Shown here one piece after another: positions 12,592 to 60,024 of a DNA stretch of 64,000 nt (position 1 is its first letter; every line of letters begins with the position of its first letter). A program made the position numbers and the translations under genes. The notes under the pieces were generated by a model. The model had not been told where the DNA came from. It was given only the letters and a program-made list of their open reading frames with translations, and did not search any database. This DNA is from Fistulifera solaris (Eukaryota): the NCBI GenBank assembly GCA_030295235.1, contig AP026143.1, forward strand, positions 620,001-684,000. The letters run 5' to 3'.

Positions 12592-13950
12592 CTATTGCAT
12601 CTCTAAGCGTAATTCCTGCATTTGCTTCTTTTCTATTTCTACACTCGACTGCAGCTTGACGGCGACAGTGATTTCTATAACTTTCAGTTCGTCACTAACC
12701 GCCATCAGTCGATTGACCTTCACTTCCACAACGTCACCGGGCTGCAGATCTTCTAGTGCTTCAAACAAGTCAGCTTCTCGATTGATTTTGGTGTTGCCCA
12801 CTTGAATAATAATGTCACCTATTTCAATGAGTCCATTCTCTGTTCGCCGTGTTCCTTTAAGACCCGCCGCAGCCGCTGGACTGCCGGGTGGGACATCCAA
12901 AATCAGGACACCATTCGTGATACCCAAGGATCGCGCTTGTCTTGATTCTAAATATGAAATGCCGATAATGGGGCGCACGACGCGACCATCCCGAATTAAT
13001 GTTTCGACAACAAATTTGATGGTATCGCTCGGTATCGCAAAGCCAATTCCGGAAGATGCCCCGGAAGGTGAGTAGATTGCCGTATTCATGCCGATTAATT
13101 TGCCCGATGAATCCAACAATGGCCCTCCGGAATTTCCTGGGTTGATAGCGGCGTCGGTTTGAATGACGTTACTGATGGGACGCCCAATGGGAGAGCGTAC
13201 TTCTCTTCCTAAGCCACTGACGATGCCTGTAGTGAGAGTATGATCCAATCCAAAAGGATTACCGATGGCCAAGGCTGTTTGTCCAACTTTGAGCCCCTTG
13301 GAAGTGCCCACAGCAATCGGTTGTAAAAGTTCCGGCGGGGCATCGACTTTGAGAACGGCAATATCTTTGCTTGGATCGACACCCACAACTTTCGCTTTAA
13401 AGACAGATCGCGCTATATTCCCATTTCCGAAAGAACTCGAACCTCGCATAGAAGTGTACGGTATCGGACCATCATTCTTACAGGACTGTTGACAGGCGGC
13501 ATCCGTTAAGATGGCAATCTGGGCGGTCAAGGCATTCCGGACGACGTGATAATTTGTAACAATGTGTCCTTCTTTATCCCAGACAAAGCCACTCCCACTT
13601 CCCAATGGAACTTCCATTATGTTGGGCGAAAATTGATCTCGTCGTTCCGTAAATGTGTCCAAGAAAACGACAGACGGCGCCGTCTTTTCGAAAATGGCAA
13701 TTCGTTTCGATTCGCTTTCCGACAAGGCACGCGCGGATTGTGGAACAATTAGGAGCGACGACAGAGCAGGAAGGGATTGTAAGAAGTGTCGACGAGTGTT
13801 GGAGGATGCGTCGCAGCCTTCCTGATCGCCGTTACATGCCGAAGCCCGTCGGCAAAACGAATGAGCTGGTCTTGAACGAAAATTTTCAGTCCATGCGAGT
13901 GAATTGTGGGACAGGAGAAGGATTGCGACCGATGTAGCAATCAAAATCAT
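12592..13950 (-). CDS. DegP/HtrA (Deg1-like) serine protease with PDZ domain, probably plastid lumen
   Basis: GSGSGFVWD, VTNYHV, DIAVL, IQTDAAINPGNSGGPL and C-terminal PDZ. Signal peptide ending SLAW, then twin-Arg TRRHFL. ATG at 13950. Confidence 0.93.
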   Translation of the reverse strand: MILIATSVAILLLSHNSLAWTENFRSRPAHSFCRRASACNGDQEGCDASSNTRRHFLQSLPALSSLLIVPQSARALSESESKRIAIFEKTAPSVVFLDTFTERRDQFSPNIMEVPLGSGSGFVWDKEGHIVTNYHVVRNALTAQIAILTDAACQQSCKNDGPIPYTSMRGSSSFGNGNIARSVFKAKVVGVDPSKDIAVLKVDAPPELLQPIAVGTSKGLKVGQTALAIGNPFGLDHTLTTGIVSGLGREVRSPIGRPISNVIQTDAAINPGNSGGPLLDSSGKLIGMNTAIYSPSGASSGIGFAIPSDTIKFVVETLIRDGRVVRPIIGISYLESRQARSLGITNGVLILDVPPGSPAAAAGLKGTRRTENGLIEIGDIIIQVGNTKINREADLFEALEDLQPGDVVEVKVNRLMAVSDELKVIEITVAVKLQSSVEIEKKQMQELRLEMQ

Positions 13951-18287: not shown

Positions 18288-18679
18288 TCTTGTACGTGAA
18301 AGGCAAAAGAAGGATAAAGGACGCTATTTGAGAACGAATGCATGTACTACGTATTTTTTTTTCTCCTACCTGGTAGGTCTACTATAACATTCTGTTGTTC
18401 TCCTTGTTTGTCCTCATCGTCACATCGTCACTCGTCAATTGATGATTAATGATTATTGATGCTGTATGTTGATGCGACATGCGACGCGCAATCATGACTG
18501 AAACGAAACAGTCGTGCTGAAAAAGGTATCGCACAATATGGGCCTATAGTCTTGTAAAGAGAAATTGAATCCACTCCCAAGAGTGAACGTAAGCAACTTA
18601 CGCTTTCTTGACAAGCCTAGTAGCTACCTCACTTAACGGAGCGTTGCCAAACTGGACTTAAACAGCATAATTGATCGGT

Positions 18680-19745
18680 GATTTTGGACCTACAGAGATT
18701 CTGAGCCGATTCCAGAAAATCTGGAATAGTGCTGGGTCATACAGAAATTCTGCGAGTGGTCCAGAATTTCTGGACCATCGGTGTTTGGGTCTTACAGAGG
18801 TTCTTAAATTCTGAAATTGATGTGTCAAGGATTCGATAAGATCTTTGGACGTTCCAAATAATCTGGAATCGTAGATTTGGGTCCTACAGAGATTCTGAGC
18901 CGATTCCAGAAAATCTGGACAAGTTCTGGGTCATACAGAAATTCTGCGAGTGGTCCAGAAATTCTGGACCATCGGTGTTTGGGTGTTACAGAGGTTCTAT
19001 AAGTTCTGAAATTGATGGTTCAAAAGTATTCGATAAGATCTTTGAACGTTCCAAATAATCTTGAATCGTTGATTTTGGTCCTACAGAGATTCTGAGCTGA
19101 TTCCAGAAAATCTGGAATAGTGCTGGGTCATACAGAAATTCTGCGAGTGGTCCAGAAATTCTGGACCATCGGTGTTTGGGTCTTACAGAGGTTCTTAAAA
19201 AATTCTGAAATTGATGTGTCAAGGATTCGATAAGATCTTTGGACGTTCCAAATAATCTGGAATCGTAGATTTGGGTCCTACAGAGATTCTGAGCCGATTC
19301 CAGAAAATCTGGACAAGTTCTGGGTCATACAGAAATTCTGCGAGTGGTCCAGAAATTCTGGACCATCGGTGTTTGGGTGTTACAGAGGTTCTATAAGTTC
19401 TGAAATTGATGGTTCAAAAGTATTCGATAAGATCTTTGAACGTTCCAAATAATCTTGAATCGTTGATTTTGGTCCTACAGAGATTCTGAGCTGATTCCAG
19501 AAAATCTGGAATAGTGCTGGGTCATACAGAAATTCTGCGAGTGGTCCAGAAATTCTGGACCATCGGTGTTTGGGTCTTACAGAGGTTCTTAAAAAATTCT
19601 GAAATTGATGTGTCAAGGATTCGATAAGATCTTTGGACGTTCCAAATACTCCGTAATGTGGAATCGTTGATTTGGGTTCTACAGAGATTCTGAGCCGATT
19701 CCAGAAAATCTGGAATAGTGCTGGGTCATTACAGAGGTTCTGGGT
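18680..19745. repeat. Tandem satellite, ~197-bp monomers alternating A/B (394-bp higher-order unit), ~5.4 monomers
   Basis: TGGTCCAGAAWTTCTGGACCA at 18757, 18951, 19148, 19345, 19542. Identical spurious ORFs are offset by 394 bp. Confidence 0.95.
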
Positions 19746-26977: not shown

Positions 26978-28945
26978 AATGCGAGAGACGCAAAACGGCG
27001 GAACAGTCTTTGTTGTTCGGTTCATGACTAGCTGGTACTGTACAATCCAGTCTCGGCTGGAGTAAACCAACACTCCGTTTCATAGTGGAAATTCAAGGTG
27101 TCAATCCTCGGATTTTCGAGTGAAAATAAAAAGAAACTATTAACACGTAAGTCAGAATCATCATTGTTGCGACTTTATTTACCCGTAATCATAACAACTT
27201 TCGCAGTTGAATGACAATGGAGGGATGCGAGAGACGCAAAACGGAACCCATTGGTTGTTCGGTTCATGACTACTGTACAATCCAGTCCTGGCTGCCGTAA
27301 ACCAACACTCCGCTGAATAGTAAAAATTCAAGGTGTCTATCCTCGGATTTTCGACGTGAAAATAAAAGAAACTCTTAACACGTAAGTCAGAATCATCACT
27401 GTTGCGACTTTATTTACCCGTAATCATAATAAAATTCGCACTTGATTGACAATGGACGGATGCGAGAGACGCAAAACGGAACCCTTTGTTGTTCGGTTCA
27501 TGACTACTGTACAATCGAGTCCTGGCTGCCGTAAACCAACACTCCGCTGCATAGTAAAAATTCAAGGTGTCGATCCTCGGATTTTCGACGTGAAAATAAA
27601 AGAAACTCTTAACACGTAAGTCAGAATCATCATTGTTGCGACTTTATTTACCCGTAATTATAACAACATTCGCACTTGAATGACAATTGACGGATGCGAG
27701 AGACGCAAAACGGAACCCTTTGTTGTTCGGTTCATGACTACTGTACAATCGAGTCCTGGTTGCCGTAAACCAACACTCCGCTGCATAGTAAAAATTCAAG
27801 TTGTCGATCCTCGGATTTTCGACGTGAAAATAAAAGAAACTCTTAACACGTAAGTCAGAATCATCATTGTTGCGACTTTATTTACCCGTAATCATAATAA
27901 AATTCGCACTTGAATGACAATGGACGGATGCGAGAGAGCAAAACGGAACACTCTTGTTGTTCGGTTCATGACTACTGTACAATCCAGTCTCGGCTGCCGT
28001 AAACCAACAATCCGCTGAATAGTAAAAATTCAAGGTGTCGATCCTCGGATTTTCGACGTGAAAATAAAAAGAAACTATTAACACGTAAGTTAGAATCATC
28101 ATTGTTGCGACTTTATTTACCCGTAATCATAACAACATTCGCACTTGAATGACAATTGACGGACGCGAGAGACGCAAAACGGAACACTCTTTGTTGTTCG
28201 GTTCATGACAACTGTACAATCCAGTCTTGGCTGCCGTAAACCAGCACTCCCGGATTTTCGACGTGAAAATAAAAAGAAACTATTAACACGTAAGTCAGAA
28301 TCATCACTGTTGCGACTTTATTTACCCGTAATCATAACAACATTCGCACTTGATTGACAATGGACGGATGCGAGAGACGCAAAACGGAACCCTTTGTTGT
28401 TCGGTTCATGACTACTGTACAATCGAGTCCTGGCTGCCGTAAACCAACACTCCGCTGCATAGTAAAAATTCAAGGTGTCTATCCTCGGATTTTCGACGTG
28501 AAAATAAAAGAAACTCTTAACACGTAAGTCAGAATCATCATTGTTGCGACTTTATTTACCCGTAATCATAACAACATTCGCACTTGATTGACAATGGACG
28601 GATCCGAGAGACGCAAAACGGAACACTCTTTGTTGTTCGGTTCATGACTACTGTACAATCCAGTCCTGGTTGCCGTAAACCAACACTCCGCTGGATAGTA
28701 AAAATTCAAGGTGTCGATCCTCGGATTTTCGACGTGAAAATAAAAGAAACTCTTAACACGTAAGTCAGAATCATCATTGTTGCGACTTTATTTACCCGTA
28801 ATCATAATAAAATTCGCACTTGATTGACAATGGACGGATGCGAGAGACGCAAAACGGAACACTCTTTGTTGTTCGGTTCATGACTACTGTACAATCCAGT
28901 CCTGGTTGCCGTAAACCAACACTCCGCGGCATAATGAAATTGCAA
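26978..28945. repeat. Tandem satellite, ~235-bp unit, ~8.4 copies
   Basis: GATGCGAGAGACGCAAAACGG (or variant) at ~26978, 27224, 27459, 27693, 27927, 28162, 28367, 28601, 28837. One unit is 205 bp. Confidence 0.97.
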
Positions 28946-32371: not shown

Positions 32372-33027
32372 ACCGATATATCCAGAATTTCTGGAATTCA
32401 CACAGATTCTTTGTAGGATGAAAACGACGTCCCCTGCCTCTCTGCAACTTGCATAGAAATCATGTGTGATGCATAATACCTTGTCCAGTATTTCTGGAAC
32501 ACCGACGGAATTGCTGTGTGATGAGAAATCACTTGGTCCAGAAATTCTGGACACAGATTCTTTGTAGGATGAATACGGCGTCCCCTGCCTTTCTGCAACT
32601 TGCATAGAAATCATGTGTGATGCATAATACCTTGTCCAGTATTTCTGGAACACCGACGGAATTGCTGTGTGATGAGAAATCACTTGGTCCAGAAATTCTG
32701 GACCATCCGCAGATTTTCTGTATGACCAAACCGATATTTCCAGAATTTCTGGAATTCACACAGATTCTTTGTAGGATGAATACGGCGTCCCCTGCCTTTC
32801 TGCAACTTGCATAGAAATCATGTGTGATGCATAATACCTTGTCCAGTATTTCTGGAACACCGACGGAATTGCTGTGTGATGAGAAATCACTTGGTCCAGA
32901 AATTCTGGACCATCCGCAGATTTTCTGTATGACCAAACCGATATTTCCACAGATTCTTTGTAGGATGAATACGGCGTCCCCTGCCTTTCTGCAAATTGCA
33001 TAGATATCATGTGTGATGCATAATGCC
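32372..33027. repeat. Tandem satellite, 207-bp unit with deleted variants (151/207/189 bp)
   Basis: cacagattctttgtaggatgaa at 32401, 32552, 32759, 32948; contains the same 21-bp palindrome as the 18.7-kb array. Confidence 0.95.
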
Positions 33028-33029
33028 TT

Positions 33030-33225
33030 GGAGTTACCTATATCCGAGATCATACTCCTTGTCTTTAACGTTTTCCATCGATCGTCCGACGTTGACTTTC
33101 AGTGGAAAAACACCCAAAGCGATCGCTCAAACGGCAACTTACTTTTTAAGTTTGAAGAGGTCTCATCTTGACATTGAGGCTGACGGCGATGGGATATTTG
33201 ACTTTCGTACTTTCCGTCTGCGATG
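33030..33225 (+). pseudogene. Fragment of the RNI/LRR-like family between two repeat arrays
   Basis: LSLTFSIDRPTLTFSGKTPKAIAQTATYFLSL..FDFR matches LSIGGKTARGIAQTLAYFMSL of copy 6. Confidence 0.65.
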
Positions 33226-53295: not shown

Positions 53296-53713
53296 AATCT
53301 AAAAGCGGAGGTTTTTGAAGTTCATTGAGGAGCTAACGAAAAGAAAAGACATTAATATTAATAAGCGGAACGAAAAAAGATGGTCACGTTTTTTATATGT
53401 TTTGCGTCTCACGCGGTCATCGCGAAAGTAGAACGATCAGACATCCCGGGACTGAAACTTGATGGAGTCCTTCAAAAAGTAATCGACACTTTGCGATACA
53501 GTGAAAGACGGACCTCTATTTCATTGCATTTGACGCACTTCATCCTCCCTAGACTAACAAAGCTCAAAAAGCATGCATTGGCCAAAATAGTATTTCATAT
53601 TCAAAGGTCAAAGTATTCGCAATGCAGCGCTCTTCAACACTCTAGCACGTGAGTTACTTCCTCGTGACTGAAATTCAGTCGGATAAATTGTCACTTACAC
53701 TCTCTACCTATAG

Positions 53714-54031
53714 TGTTGGAAGATACGATTCCGGATCGAGCTTTAACCGTAGTGAAGATACGAGTTTGAAAACTGACGTAGACAAAAAGGAACACATGGG
53801 CAGAAAAAGTAGTAAAACAGTAACTTGGGCCGACGTTGTTCGTGGTGGTTTCAAGAGCTCATTCTCTTGAAACAATCCAGTTAATAGACGGAAGTTTTAT
53901 TTACTCTCCTTTTATTATCAAGTTATTGTATCAAGTTCGGCCCTGCATACGTTAATTACCGGCGCAGTGATTGTTTTGATTCGCTGAATAAGGTTCGGCG
54001 AGTCGCCGAAGTGGAATTGCTTTTTCTAACA
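53714..54031 (+). repeat. 5' LTR (318 bp)
   Basis: TGTTGGAAG...TTCTAACA; matches 59334-59649. Confidence 0.97.
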
Positions 54032-54045
54032 TTGTTTCAAGAGAA
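54031..54045 (+). promoter_or_regulatory. Primer-binding site complementary to the element's own LTR (53862-53876)
   Basis: ATTGTTTCAAGAGAA is the exact reverse complement of TTCTCTTGAAACAAT; no TGG start. Confidence 0.75.
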
Positions 54046-54476
54046 AATATTATTTTTCTCTACTGTTTCGAAACGGCTTTCGACGTCTCCCTTGTTTCTC
54101 CGGCTAATGCAAGGCGACGACGAAGCGCATCGCTGCCATCATCAAAGAGCTACACAACCTGCGCCTTCGAGAGCGTACTCATTGCACAAGTCGAAGCCAT
54201 CAATAACGCTCGGCGCACGCAAGGAGTTGACGATTCCGGCGATTTCAAGGAGATCCTTGTTTTTGAGATCGGGGGACAGAATGCGCATCGCAAACCAGGT
54301 GAACCGCCCAGCCACTTGGAGGGGGACCCTGGAACGCGCAAACGATCGAACAGTATCGTTGCGGCGTCGTCACGCAAGTGACAAGAACCCGGGTGTATTT
54401 GCGCCAACGAGCTAAACCTCGAAGTGTGCCGCGCCCAACAACCTCTCGCATCGAGCAGCCGAGACCAACCACGACC

Positions 54477-57400
54477 ATGAGTAGCGGCCGAAACCGACCG
54501 CTGAAACGGGTGCTGGACAACCGGCAATGCAGACGGCTGGACGAGGTGGTCGCAACCGCAACCGTGAAGCAAGCAGCGGTCCTCCGATGGAACGGTTTTG
54601 AAGCCGAAGACCCGTGTGCACGCGAAGGCGAGATCCCTGAGATGAACGGTTTTGTTTTTGAGTGTGCAGAAGAGCGACAGCATCGCGCTTCTTCGGCCGG
54701 GTGATGGAAGAACTCCAGCGAATGCGTACGGTCCGAAAGTACCGTATCCCGAGGACCTATCTTCCCTGTTTGGCGACACCATTGCGATGCCAGTCCTCAC
54801 GCCGCCGGAAGCACCAGCAGAGGGAGCACCGCGCGCCGTGCAAGACGACTACAACGATGATCGCAAGCTTTACCCGACAGCATCGCTGATCAGCTTCGTG
54901 GCACCAGCCTTCCCAACCTTTTCAACGACGCCCTACGTCAGTGCACGCCCATGATGAAGGGGGGCGTTTGAAGGCCCTGGACGGTTACAAGACGGCTTCA
55001 CAAACTACAGACTGCGTTTGGCTGTTCACCAGCATTAGAGCCATCATGCTGGAGTTCGACGCCACCAAGAAAGTACAGCTATCCCTCCTTGATGCACGCG
55101 CAAATTTCCTCAACTGCACCCAACAGCCAGGCGACTCTGTAGAGGACTACGTCGAGAACGTGCGTGGTTGGGCTGAGGCCATCGAGTGCTACGGCGGGCA
55201 CATTGCTGAGCACGTTTTCCCGCGACCGGGACGATCTCGATGCGGTCCCCCGACCTGGATGGGTACCACAAGGCTAAGGAAGAGACTCTGGCTTTGGCCA
55301 TCATTCGCAATGCCAATCCTGCCCGCTTTGGAAGCCTACGCAGCGAGCTCGCCAATTCTTTCTTACTCGGCCAGGACAAGTATCCGAAGGATTCCACGGC
55401 TGCGTACAATCTGCTCATTAACTACCGTCCTCCCGTTGCTCCCAGGAACCAGCAGCACGCCAGGAGCGGACAACAGCAACAAGGAGCGAGCAAAGGGAAC
55501 CAGGCGTCGACCTCCAACTCCGCCACGCCAACGGCCCCCACTGAGGTAAACGGGATCACTTTCGGCGCCAAGTCGGTACCGTGGTCCCTGGGACAAATGG
55601 GGAAGCTTTTCCCCACATCACGTGCAGCAAATGCAAGCAGCCCGGTCACTTCGCGAAACCGCTGCCCTAACGGGCGTCTCTGTAGTGTCGGGAACCACTT
55701 TGACGCAGCACGGTTTTGTCCTCGCACATGCAAACTCGAGTGACGGTATTGATCCCAACTGGATACTCCTCGACTCGCAATCGACTGTGTCTGTTTTCCG
55801 GAACGCCTCCATGCTTTCTAACATTCGACCTAGCGACCAGGTGCTCCGAGTGGTCACCAACGGTGGCAGCCAGGTTTCCCGCCTCATCGGCGATTTCCGA
55901 ATCTGGGCCCTGTTTGGTATAACCCCGAATCCATTGCCAACATCCTGTCCCTTGCTGAAGTTCGGCGCGTCTGCCGCGTGACCATGGACACGTCGGAATC
56001 TCCGGCGTTCATTGTGCACCGGCTCGGCTCCGAGATGCGTTCGAGGAAGCCGGACTCTGGTCTATACGTTTTTAGTTCTAACGATAGCACCGCCGTTAAG
56101 ATGTATACTTTGCTTCAAACCGTAGCCGGGCAAAAGAAACTCTTCAACAAGCGCCAAATTGGCGCTGACGAGGCTCGTCGCATTTATCGCATTGCCGGGA
56201 GCCCATCGGAAGAAGACTTGAGTGGTATTTGCGTGAAAACTTTATCCGCGAATTCCCCAATCACGGCAGATGACGCAAAACGCGCGACCGCAATTTATGG
56301 GCCTGATGTCGCAGCACTCAAGGGTAAGACACGTCGCTGACGCACCACGTGCCTTCTTTCAAAGCAATCCCGATACCTGCGCCGATCCTTCTGCATCACC
56401 GTGACGTCACCCTGTGTTCAGATTTTCTGTTTGTGCAGGGCATTCCGTTTTTTCACACCATCTCACGCAACATTGGTTTTCGCACATTGACAGCAGTTCC
56501 CGACCGTTCCAAAAGGACCATCTTACGTGAAACCCGACGTGCTATCAACATATACACCACCAGCGGTTTCATTGTGCACGGCATGCATTGTGACAACGAG
56601 TTCGGCTGCATCAAGGATGACGTCCTTCCGGTCAAACTTGACATCGTCCCAGCTGACAGCCATGTCGGCGAGGGTGGAGCGCTCCATCCGGACAATTCAG
56701 CGAACGCACCAGGGCTGCTGTTCATGGGATGCCCTACAAGCGCCTCCCCAAACTCATGGTTATAGAGTTGGTAAAAGAAGCCGTCCGTTGTCTCAACTTG
56801 TTTCCGCTGACGAGACGGCATCTCGACAACGATGAGCTAATCGATTGTGACTGGTGAAGGTTTCCCTGACTACAACAAGATGACTTTGGAATTTGGCAAA
56901 TATGTGCAGATTTACGAGCCCACGACACCCACCAATACACTTCATTCGCTGCACTTTAGGTGCCATTGCGTTGGGTCCCAGCGGCAACGCCAATGGTGAC
57001 TACGCTTTTATGTCCCTGGCCACCGGTGCTCGTGTTACCCGACATCAGTGACAACGCGTTGATCGTATCCCCGACACTGCCATCGACCGTGTCCACGCTC
57101 TTGCACTTGCCGAAGACCAGCCTCTTATACAGGATTCCGGTCTCGTTTTTGAGTGGGACCCCGACATGCCCATTGACGACGATGAATACGATAAAGATTA
57201 CTTTCCCCCTTCCACCGAAGCGTGCCGGCGATCATGACCTTGACTCCCGCTTCCTACCCGTCGGCGGCCGACGAACTACTTTCCCTCACGTCTCCTGTCA
57301 GTGCCCCATCCGACATCGTCATGGGCCAAGGAGAGCGAGCACGGAGCCGTCAGAAGCGCCAAGCACGGCGCCGTCAGAAGCGCCAACACCGACAATCAAG

Positions 57401-59389
57401 GAGCGGAAGCTCAAGGAGCGGGAAATGGAGATGATGATGACGACGAGAGGCGGACGAGGATTTTTACCCCGACAGGCGTTGAAGGTGACGTCGGCGATCC
57501 ATCGGTTGAAGACCAAGGAGCCAGACTTTATCGCAAACGAAACTAGCAACGAACCGGTTGACAACGGGGACAGCACAACGCACGACCCACCAACTCGCAA
57601 TGTCTTCTGCATGCTCCAGGAAGCTACGAAATCGGTAGAGGAGCACATTATCACGGATTCAGTGCGCCGCGTCATAGTCGCCATCATTCTGACACAAATG
57701 TCCGAGCAGGCAGGTTTGAAGAAACACGGCAAACGTCGCGGAACATGCGCTAATGCAAGAATTCCAGCAATTGGACGACCTTACGGTGTTCATTCCCGAT
57801 ATGCAAGATTAAGCCCGAGGAGAAGAGTGCCGCAGCTCTAAATTTATTGAAAGAGAAAACGCTGACGGGAGCTTAAAGGGCAGAACAGTTGCGGATGGTA
57901 GTAAACAGCGGAGCCTATACGACAAATCCGAAACCGCGTCGCCGACAGTATCCGCAGATGCTCTGATATGCAGTGTAATGATTGACGCCCGTGGAGGGAC
58001 GAGATTCGGGCATTTGCGATGTGGCTGGGGCCTACCTAAAGGCTTTTATGGAGGATTTTGTGATACTTAAGTTCAGCGGGAAAGCTGTCGAGATCCTTTG
58101 CCGAATGAGTAGCAAGTACCTGCCTTACGTGTGCGAGGAAAATGGAAAGAAGGTGATCTACGTCCAGCTTAAAAAGGCCCTATACGGATGCGTGAAGAGT
58201 GCCCTTTTGTGGTACAAGATGTTTTCGGAGACTTTGCAGAACATGGGGTTTGAGCTTAACCCGTACGACCAATGCGTGGCAAACTGTGACTTCAATGGGT
58301 CCCAGTGCACTATAGTATGGTACGTTGATGACATGAAGGTATCACACAAGGACCCCCGAGGTCGTGTCAGCTGTAATTTTGAATATCGAGTCCAATTTCG
58401 GAAAGATGACCGTTAAGCGAGGGAAGGAGCACGAGTTCCTCGGAATGAAAATCGTTTACAACAAGAACAACACCGCGACAATCACCATGCGTTCTTACCT
58501 TGAAGAGGCAATTGCGAATCTGGTCTTAACATCACTAACACAGCCGCCACCCCAGCTCGAAGGTACCTATTCGACGTGAATGAAAAATTGCCACGGCTTG
58601 ATAAAAAGAGAAATGACATTTTCCACAGTGTTTCGGCGAAGCTTTTGTGCGTTGCAACCAGAGCCAGGATGGATATCCTCTTACCGGTTTGTTTCCTGTG
58701 CACGCTGCGGTGTCCAAAGCGACCGAGGGAGGACGAGTTGAAGTTGAAGAGGGTTTTGGAATACGTGAAATGGTACGCTAGACCTGAGCTACACCATCGG
58801 GGCCGATGACTTAGGAAAGATGCAAACATGGGTCGATGCGTCGTATGCTGTGCATCCTGATATGCGAAGTCACACGGGTGGAATCATTTCTTTTGGAAGA
58901 GGAGGTTTGGTTTGCAAGTCTTCCAAACAGAAGTTGAACACGAAAAGCTCCACAGAGGCTGAATTGGTTGGTGCTAGCGATTACTTGCCGAACACACTGT
59001 GGTTGAAGATGTTCCTTGAGGCACAAGGACATAGGATTGTGGAGAATGTTTTGCAGCAGGACAACGAGAGTGCTATAAAATTGGAGAAAAATGGACGCAC
59101 CTCAGCGGGACCGAAGTCGCGACATATCAACATTCGATACTTCTTTATCAAGGACAGGATTAAGGCAGAAGGCATCAAGATCCGGCACTGCCCTACTCTC
59201 AAAATGATAGCTGATTTCTTCACGAAACCGCTACAGGGAAAACTTTTCTTGAAGCTAAGGTCAGTAATCATGGGGTATGATCACATTAGTTCCCTGGATG
59301 ACGATGATGAGGAATCGATCCAGATCGAGAGCGTGTTGGAAGATACGATTCCGGATCGAGCTTTAACCGTAGTGAAGATACGAGTTTGA
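54477..59389 (+). CDS. gag-pol polyprotein (many frameshifts)
   Basis: Zn knuckle CSKCKQPGHF..C (~55625), protease WILLDSQST, integrase LCSDF/HCDNEF/VERSIRT, RT CDVAGAYL, KALYG, WYVDD, RNase H VDASYAVH..SHTG, SSTEAE, QDNES, ADFFTKP. Confidence 0.92.
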
Positions 59390-59649
59390 AAACTGACGTA
59401 GACAAAAAGGAACACATGGGCAGAAAAAGTAGTAAAAACGGTAACTTGGGCCGACGTTGTTCGTGGTGGTTTCAAGAGCTCATTCTCTTGAAACAATCCA
59501 GTTAATAGACGGAAGTTTTATTTACTCTCCTTTTATTATCAAGTTATTGTATCAAGTTCGGCCCTGCATACGTTAATTACCGCGCAGTGATTGTTTTGAT
59601 TCGCGAATAAGGTTCGCGAGTCGCCGAAGTGGAATTGCTTTTTCTAACA
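59334..59649 (+). repeat. 3' LTR (316 bp)
   Basis: Differs from the 5' LTR by only a few single-base changes, mostly indels. Confidence 0.97.
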
Positions 59650-60024
59650 GAACTTTCTGAGTGTGCATAGTGGTGTTAGTTGAACATCCGCTAGATGTCG
59701 GAGCGCAACAGAACGCCCTAATCCGATTTTGTCCGCGAAAAACACAACAGAAAAGCGAACACTGTTCCGAAAGACGAACTGGAATGAGAACACTTATTCG
59801 TCGCCATTTCTTTCTTTGCCAATAACAAAAAGTAAGAACGGGTCGTTGCTCTTTGGCTTCAAGAAAGACATAAAAATCATGAATCATCCTGTCAATGCAG
59901 CAAAGTTCACAATCTACGGAGTATAAATTCGTCATACAACAAAGCTCAAAGAGTCACATAAAGCTATTAATCAGCAGCCGATCAGACAACCTAAAACATC
60001 AGCAGTCCTCAACTTTCCTACAAC

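Follow-up and report, generated by a model that had tools for sequence, protein, structure and literature searches.

A Ty1/copia LTR retrotransposon within the 64-kb stretch of DNA analyzed here (the window) carries, at the junction of its 5′ LTR with the internal region, a candidate primer-binding site (PBS) that is perfectly complementary over 15 nt to a site inside the same LTR, and in related elements this pairing is conserved at the same position through compensatory changes. We consider it probable that the element uses the 5′ end of its own RNA to prime minus-strand DNA synthesis, in the manner of Tf1, either in cis or between co-packaged RNAs. Self-priming had been proposed in a preliminary description of this DNA, and the conserved, covarying pairing found at the junction supports that reading; from it we infer the transcription start, the cleavage of the RNA and the priming event.

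The element and its candidate primer-binding site

The window contains one such element, which spans positions 53714-59649 and belongs to a Ty1/copia lineage associated with diatoms (Table 1). Its reverse transcriptase (RT) matches Pfam family RVT_2 (PF07727; E = 1.2e-07; score 32 bits, cut-off 31.6), which bears out the earlier assignment to copia, and the same family is present in full-length relatives. Among the atlas clusters nearest to the RNase H piece by features is 'putative Ty1/Copia family ribonuclease HI'; the first-ranked cluster lists Bacillariophyta. The frame that encodes this piece reaches its stop codon 56 nt inside the 3′ LTR. No Pfam match of its own was obtained for the polyprotein piece at 55834-56340, and none to integrase in the broken frames of the element; relatives aligned downstream of the same piece share a conserved stretch ahead of the RT to which no family is assigned.

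Table 1. Coordinates of the Ty1/copia element and of its proposed priming features in the window.
Feature	Position	Strand	Basis or remark
5′ LTR	53714..54031	+	318 nt, TG..CA; LTR-LTR alignment and direct-repeat search
U3 arm	53848..53857	+	identical to PBS positions 54034-54043; can pair with 53864-53873; palindrome across predicted start
Initiator-like TCATT	53859..53863	+	predicted +1 at 53862 (diatom consensus) or 53861 (YYA+1)
Proposed self-primer, first 15 nt of predicted transcript (start of R)	53862..53876	+	complementarity, fold, covariation
Candidate PBS	54031..54045	+	last LTR base and 14 internal bases; reverse complement of 53862-53876
Internal region (gag, protease, integrase, RT, RNase H)	54046..59326	+	frames interrupted by numerous single-base indels in this assembly
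Conserved polyprotein stretch 5′ of RT	55834..56340	+	protease/integrase by position only; query for relatives
Reverse transcriptase, Ty1/copia type	57982..58416	+	Pfam RVT_2, PF07727
C-terminal part of polyprotein (RNase H)	58769..59389	+	frame enters 3′ LTR
Polypurine-tract candidate GAGAGCG	59327..59333	+	short, purine-rich; abuts 3′ LTR; relatives carry GAGGAGCG there
3′ LTR	59334..59649	+	TG..CA; second copy of primer sequence at 59483-59497; LTR alignment

The two LTRs align with 1 substitution and 4 single-base indels between them. We compared the window with contigs from four sequencing runs and found the element, together with diverged copies, in runs X1 and X2, with the contigs breaking at the LTRs. 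A short-read contig from X1 covers 54018-59362; relative to the window it shows 20 substitutions and 85 gaps. Because these gaps greatly outnumber the substitutions and the LTRs also differ mostly by indels, most of the frameshifts seem to stem from mistakes in this assembly and not from decay of the element itself. The window copy lacks a 5-bp target-site duplication (TATAG at 53709-53713 against GAACT at 59650-59654), which could reflect recombination between copies or an assembly error; 5-bp duplications can be read in the relatives L165, L184 and L187/L188, and these confirm the TG..CA ends. Elsewhere in the window, and unrelated to the element, lie three tandem-repeat arrays at 27036-28925, 18674-19696 and 32396-33030, with periods of about 234, 197 and 150-207 nt.

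The LTR sequence TTCTCTTGAAACAAT is the exact reverse complement of the PBS, as the preliminary description had reported, and since the LTR boundary falls at 54031, the complement begins at the final base of the 5′ LTR and extends 14 nt into the internal region. The exact 15-mer occurs three times in the window, at one place in each LTR (53862 and 59483) and at the PBS on the minus strand, so that no other part of the window carries it; with up to 2 mismatches allowed there are 4 matches where 0.38 are expected, a number reached in 0 of 100 shuffles. Directly 3′ of the 5′ LTR the sequence reads TTG, so the internal region offers no TGG for pairing with the CCA end of a tRNA, and here too the earlier account is borne out. 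When the RNA of 53861-54060 is folded, the minimum free energy (MFE) structure is closed by the 15-bp helix (z = -4.7), and 0 of 200 shuffled sequences folded as well. The same fold contains a stem-loop formed by a near-perfect palindrome in U5 (53994-54010, TTCGGCGA G TCGCCGAA), a feature that is not conserved among the aligned relatives.

Conservation and covariation of the pairing among relatives

Relatives of the element were collected with the polyprotein piece at 55834-56340, which gave 242 protein matches at E<=1e-5. The listed matches carry RVT_2 and/or zf-CCHC, or have no Pfam family on record, and the named relatives come from the diatoms Fragilaria crotonensis and Fistulifera solaris. 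An alignment of the query piece with 16 of the protein matches was then used to scan metagenome contigs, yielding 80 loci (L120-L199) with 38-59% identity to the query piece, among which L120/L121, L158/L161, L168/L169 and L187/L188 are near-duplicates from different samples. A collection of viral contigs was also searched: the RNase H piece found no relative there, and the 15-mer gave single matches only among the 80 of 119 stretches listed, which we read as chance matches.

In all 80 loci (403,176 bases) we searched for exact inverted pairs of at least 15 nt separated by 40-450 nt. There are 24 such pairs, each in a different locus (L120, L121, L124, L125, L129, L132, L135, L144, L145, L155, L158, L161, L162, L164, L166, L168, L169, L173, L179, L182, L187, L188, L196 and L199), whereas 20 shuffles gave 0.05 on average and never more than 1; the pairing is thus far beyond chance. 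The layout is the same in all 24: the left arm lies in the LTR with CA just before it and CC just after it, and the right arm opens with the last A of an LTR ending in ..ACA. The gap from arm to arm measures 111-177 nt. Decayed versions of the pairing are found in 6 further loci, with 14 of 15 positions paired in L134 and L185, 13 of 15 in L177, 12 contiguous pairs in L142 and L165, and 9 contiguous pairs in L184.

Among the other 50 loci, 20 have too little sequence on either side. The contig begins at or just after the PBS in L126, L148, L153, L131, L195, L186, L163 and L180, the 5′ LTR is cut off in L175, L172 and L167, and the 3′ LTR alone is present in L128, L176, L183 and L194. We found no locus that has a complete 5′ LTR and junction and is without the pairing, the remaining loci, L159 included, not having each been settled. 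For 8 loci and the window, the junction could be placed from the pair of LTRs, independently of any complementarity, and all 15 positions pair in 6 of these loci and in the window; L165 and L184, whose junctions were located in this way, pair over 12 and 9 nt, respectively.

The perfect duplexes comprise 10 different sequences. Their left arms are TTCTCTTGAAACAAT in the window and L129, TTCTCTTGAAAGAAT in L124, TTATCTCGAAACAAT in L120/L121, TTAAATCGTTTGAAT in L125, TTAAATCGATTGAAT in L132, TTAAATCGAATGAAT in L135, CAATTACGAAACAAT in L179, CTTTCAAGAATTAAT in L144, TTCTTTTTGATTAAT in the 12 loci of the L145 family, and CTCTTTGAAAATAAT in the L155/L158/L161 family, where the helix extends to 17-18 bp. 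The preliminary description had suggested an alignment of relatives as a way of looking for compensatory change between the PBS and the LTR site, and in an alignment of 15 representatives the pairing at the LTR/internal junction is kept throughout these 10 sequences. Lack of conservation or covariation had been named there as a result that would speak against the mechanism, and the opposite is observed. Standard base pairs fill 224 of the 225 cells, and changes are two-sided at 12 of the 15 pairs and one-sided at none; with no one-sided change, G:U pairs are absent. Covariation scores 0.763, compared with 0.175 for shuffled alignments; none of 500 shuffles reached the observed value, and sliding the partner by 1-3 columns lowers the pairing to 39-54% of cells. 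Such covariation proves conserved pairing, not priming.

Structure prediction recovers the same helix. RNAalifold, with no hint supplied, returned a consensus consisting of exactly the LTR-PBS helix; this terminal helix was its only output, with no conserved structure between the two arms. In single-sequence MFE folds the helix is complete (15/15) in 14 of the 15 representatives.

Two further short repeats were noted in the relatives. A TTGAAG-like motif recurs in the U5 of most families (at about columns 136-145 of the alignment) and is diverged in the window copy. In the L145 family, TCCGCTACCTCCA and its complement form a 13-nt inverted pair just 5′ of the 3′ LTR, near the polypurine tract (L166, 5183-5252; L184, 8364-8433), and in L165 the same words form an 11-nt pair across the start of the 3′ LTR (13436-13555).

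A predicted RNA 5′ end as the proposed primer and the alternatives to it

The boundaries of the helix are fixed as well. In each of the 15 representatives the right arm begins at the U5 boundary, the three pairs that close the left arm on its 3′ side (AAU with AUU) are invariant, and a C.C mismatch directly follows them in 15 of 15. On the other side, position -1 of the left arm has no pairing partner in 13 of 15; the helix of the L155/L158/L161 family reaches 2-3 nt upstream of the predicted +1. The bases that precede the left arm are TCA in 13 representatives and CCA in 2, with CA invariant. In the window they belong to the initiator-like TCATT that had been noted at 53859-53863 and is indeed present there. 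A study of diatom promoters describes an initiator-like consensus TCAH+1W, in which +1 is the base after TCA (PMC4686930), which would place the start of the transcript at the first paired base, 53862 in the window. The self-primer site is thereby predicted to be the very 5′ end of the mRNA.

In the mechanism that we propose, transcription would begin right after (T/C)CA in the LTR, and the first 15 nt of the RNA would fold back onto the PBS, or pair with the PBS of a co-packaged copy. The RNase H of the element would cut the RNA on the 3′ side of the duplex, beside the invariant AAU and the CC that follows it, and the freed 3′-OH would then sit exactly opposite the U5 boundary and be extended. 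Since the plus strand would later copy the primer, the PBS would be rewritten from the primer sequence in each cycle, and such rewriting would explain how a perfect Watson-Crick match persists despite sequence drift. A minus-strand primer must have its 3′ end at the U5 boundary. Re-copying of the PBS from the primer in each cycle, which reverse transcription generally entails with tRNA primers, would be expected to give perfect Watson-Crick matching free of wobble.

The same LTR sequence has a second potential partner, the U3 arm (Table 1), which lies a few bases upstream of the predicted start and whose sequence shifts between families together with that of the PBS. The arm of the window element is 10 nt long and was matched by 1 of 2000 shuffles, and in 7 of 13 representatives the arm is rarely matched by shuffles (at most 14 of 2000). 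Its length is 14 nt in L129, 10 nt in L120, L132 and L158, and 8 nt in L145 and L155; weaker arms of 7 nt are found in L124 and L135, and the arm is weak or absent in L134, L179, L144 and L196. Given the predicted start, the U3 arm would be present in the RNA only at its 3′ end (U3-R), unless transcription begins further upstream. A start upstream of the arm would make the primer site internal and weaken the claim that it is the 5′ end. The arm could act as a decoy that prevents the primer sequence at the 3′ end from engaging the PBS, or, alternatively, it could be the footprint of a reverse transcriptase turning back at a 5′ end paired to the PBS. We offer only tentatively the broader reading that self-priming is the rule for the whole diatom Ty1/copia lineage and carries a second, hitherto undescribed layer in which a PBS copy in U3 pairs with the primer sequence.

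The explanation that competes best with self-priming is that the LTR-PBS helix is a structure of the RNA leader, serving packaging, dimerization, masking of the PBS or circularization of the 5′ region, and that another RNA acts as the primer. Covariation shows selected pairing only, and the second partner of the LTR sequence in U3 hints at alternative conformations, both of which would suit a leader structure. We nevertheless consider it unlikely, as the right arm lies in 15 of 15 representatives at the U5 boundary, exactly where the 3′ end of a primer must sit, and there is no other PBS candidate and no TGG. With 12 of its 15 positions variable, the PBS does not suit any conserved host primer, and zero G:U pairs together with zero one-sided changes in 225 cells are more typical of templated copying than of a helix with a solely structural role.

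Priming by a host tRNA, or by an internal fragment of one, with the LTR match being secondary, has precedent in Ty1/copia lineages in the form of half-tRNA priming (PMC6317226). For the elements studied here we regard it as highly improbable, because each of the 10 PBS sequences matches its own LTR perfectly, a diversity that no single host RNA could accommodate. TGG does not open any of the PBS variants, and the 12 of 15 positions that differ between families while each PBS still matches its own LTR mean that a conserved host RNA cannot be the partner. No tRNA-like match was seen in the LTR or the leader: a search of 53600-54300 with Rfam families, tRNA included, gave no match at E<=1. The 64-kb window contains no tRNA genes, and ARAGORN, run on the window and the 80 loci, made a single doubtful SeC call, in two duplicate loci. 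A separate idea, that the LTR site mimics a tRNA anticodon stem-loop with a CTTGAAA loop, was rejected by eye, the flanks not being self-complementary. That the complementarity is a chance match or an assembly artefact of one copy is scarcely credible, for although the window assembly has many indel errors, 24 pairs were observed in 403 kb where 0.05 were expected, and the layout is repeated in independent metagenome assemblies.

Relation to known priming systems and implications

Tf1 and Tf2 of Schizosaccharomyces pombe belong to the Tf1/sushi group of Ty3/gypsy chromoviruses, and self-priming of Tf1 has been shown experimentally. Like Tf1, the window element is without a PBS of the tRNA type, and its PBS adjoins U5 and complements the predicted start of its own transcript; the proposed release of its primer by cleavage of an RNA duplex would be a further likeness. 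Pairing in Tf1 involves the first 11 bases, with RNase H cleaving between bases 11 and 12 (PMC7175516), whereas the duplex described here measures 15 bp and takes in the last base of U5, and most families also have a PBS-like arm in U3. The RT is of copia type (RVT_2), so the window element does not belong to the Tf1/sushi clade, though it would work like Tf1. For the lineage of the window element, self-priming is a prediction from sequence.

Among Ty1/copia elements, self-priming has been predicted for the TAR lineage of plants, and was proposed earlier for its members Houba and Osr-1 (PMC6317226). The PBS of TAR elements is predicted to be primed by a fragment set free from the 5′ LTR transcript (PMC6317226), as we propose here for elements that are likewise Ty1/copia; the hosts of TAR, in contrast to those of the present lineage, are green plants. 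To present the window element as the first case of self-priming in Ty1/copia would therefore be too strong. Priming by internal tRNA fragments, mentioned above, occurs in Drosophila copia and in the plant Bianca and Osser lineages.

Fungal GalEa elements offer another comparison within copia, as a Conserved Hairpin Site replaces their PBS, for which the authors found no complementary sequence in the LTR (PMC5445492). GalEa and the window lineage are alike in having no tRNA PBS and a conserved self-complementary feature at the PBS position, but the feature of GalEa is a local palindrome just after the LTR, whereas the partner in the window lineage lies 111-177 nt upstream, in the LTR. CoDi elements are copia-like elements specific to diatoms (Maumus et al. 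2009, PMC2806351); the window element resembles them in being copia-type and in its ties to diatoms, through the named relatives and the Bacillariophyta cluster. The main text of the CoDi paper makes no mention of primer binding, tRNA or priming, and 'PBS' occurs in it once, as a wash buffer (PMC2806351). The preliminary description noted no account of self-priming in diatom elements, and our full-text searches, with few subscription journals in reach, found none, which does not amount to proof.

The self-priming reading predicts both the transcription start and the primer of these elements. It also bears on the annotation of diatom genomes. If the PBS step of LTRdigest relies on matching tRNAs, diatom pipelines that select elements by it may drop or mis-score those described here. 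The annotation of Cyclotella cryptica kept only LTR candidates with a primer-binding site, found via LTRdigest (PMC7466962).

With ten sequence versions, all perfectly matched, the relatives of the window element provide an unusually clean natural record of co-evolution between primer and PBS. Confirmation of the mechanism would mean that Tf1-type self-priming also occurs in a copia lineage of diatoms, which are a major algal group. Should the broader reading, with self-priming throughout the lineage and a second layer in U3, prove true, then, together with the prediction for TAR, it would mean that self-priming arose repeatedly in Pseudoviridae or is ancestral there.
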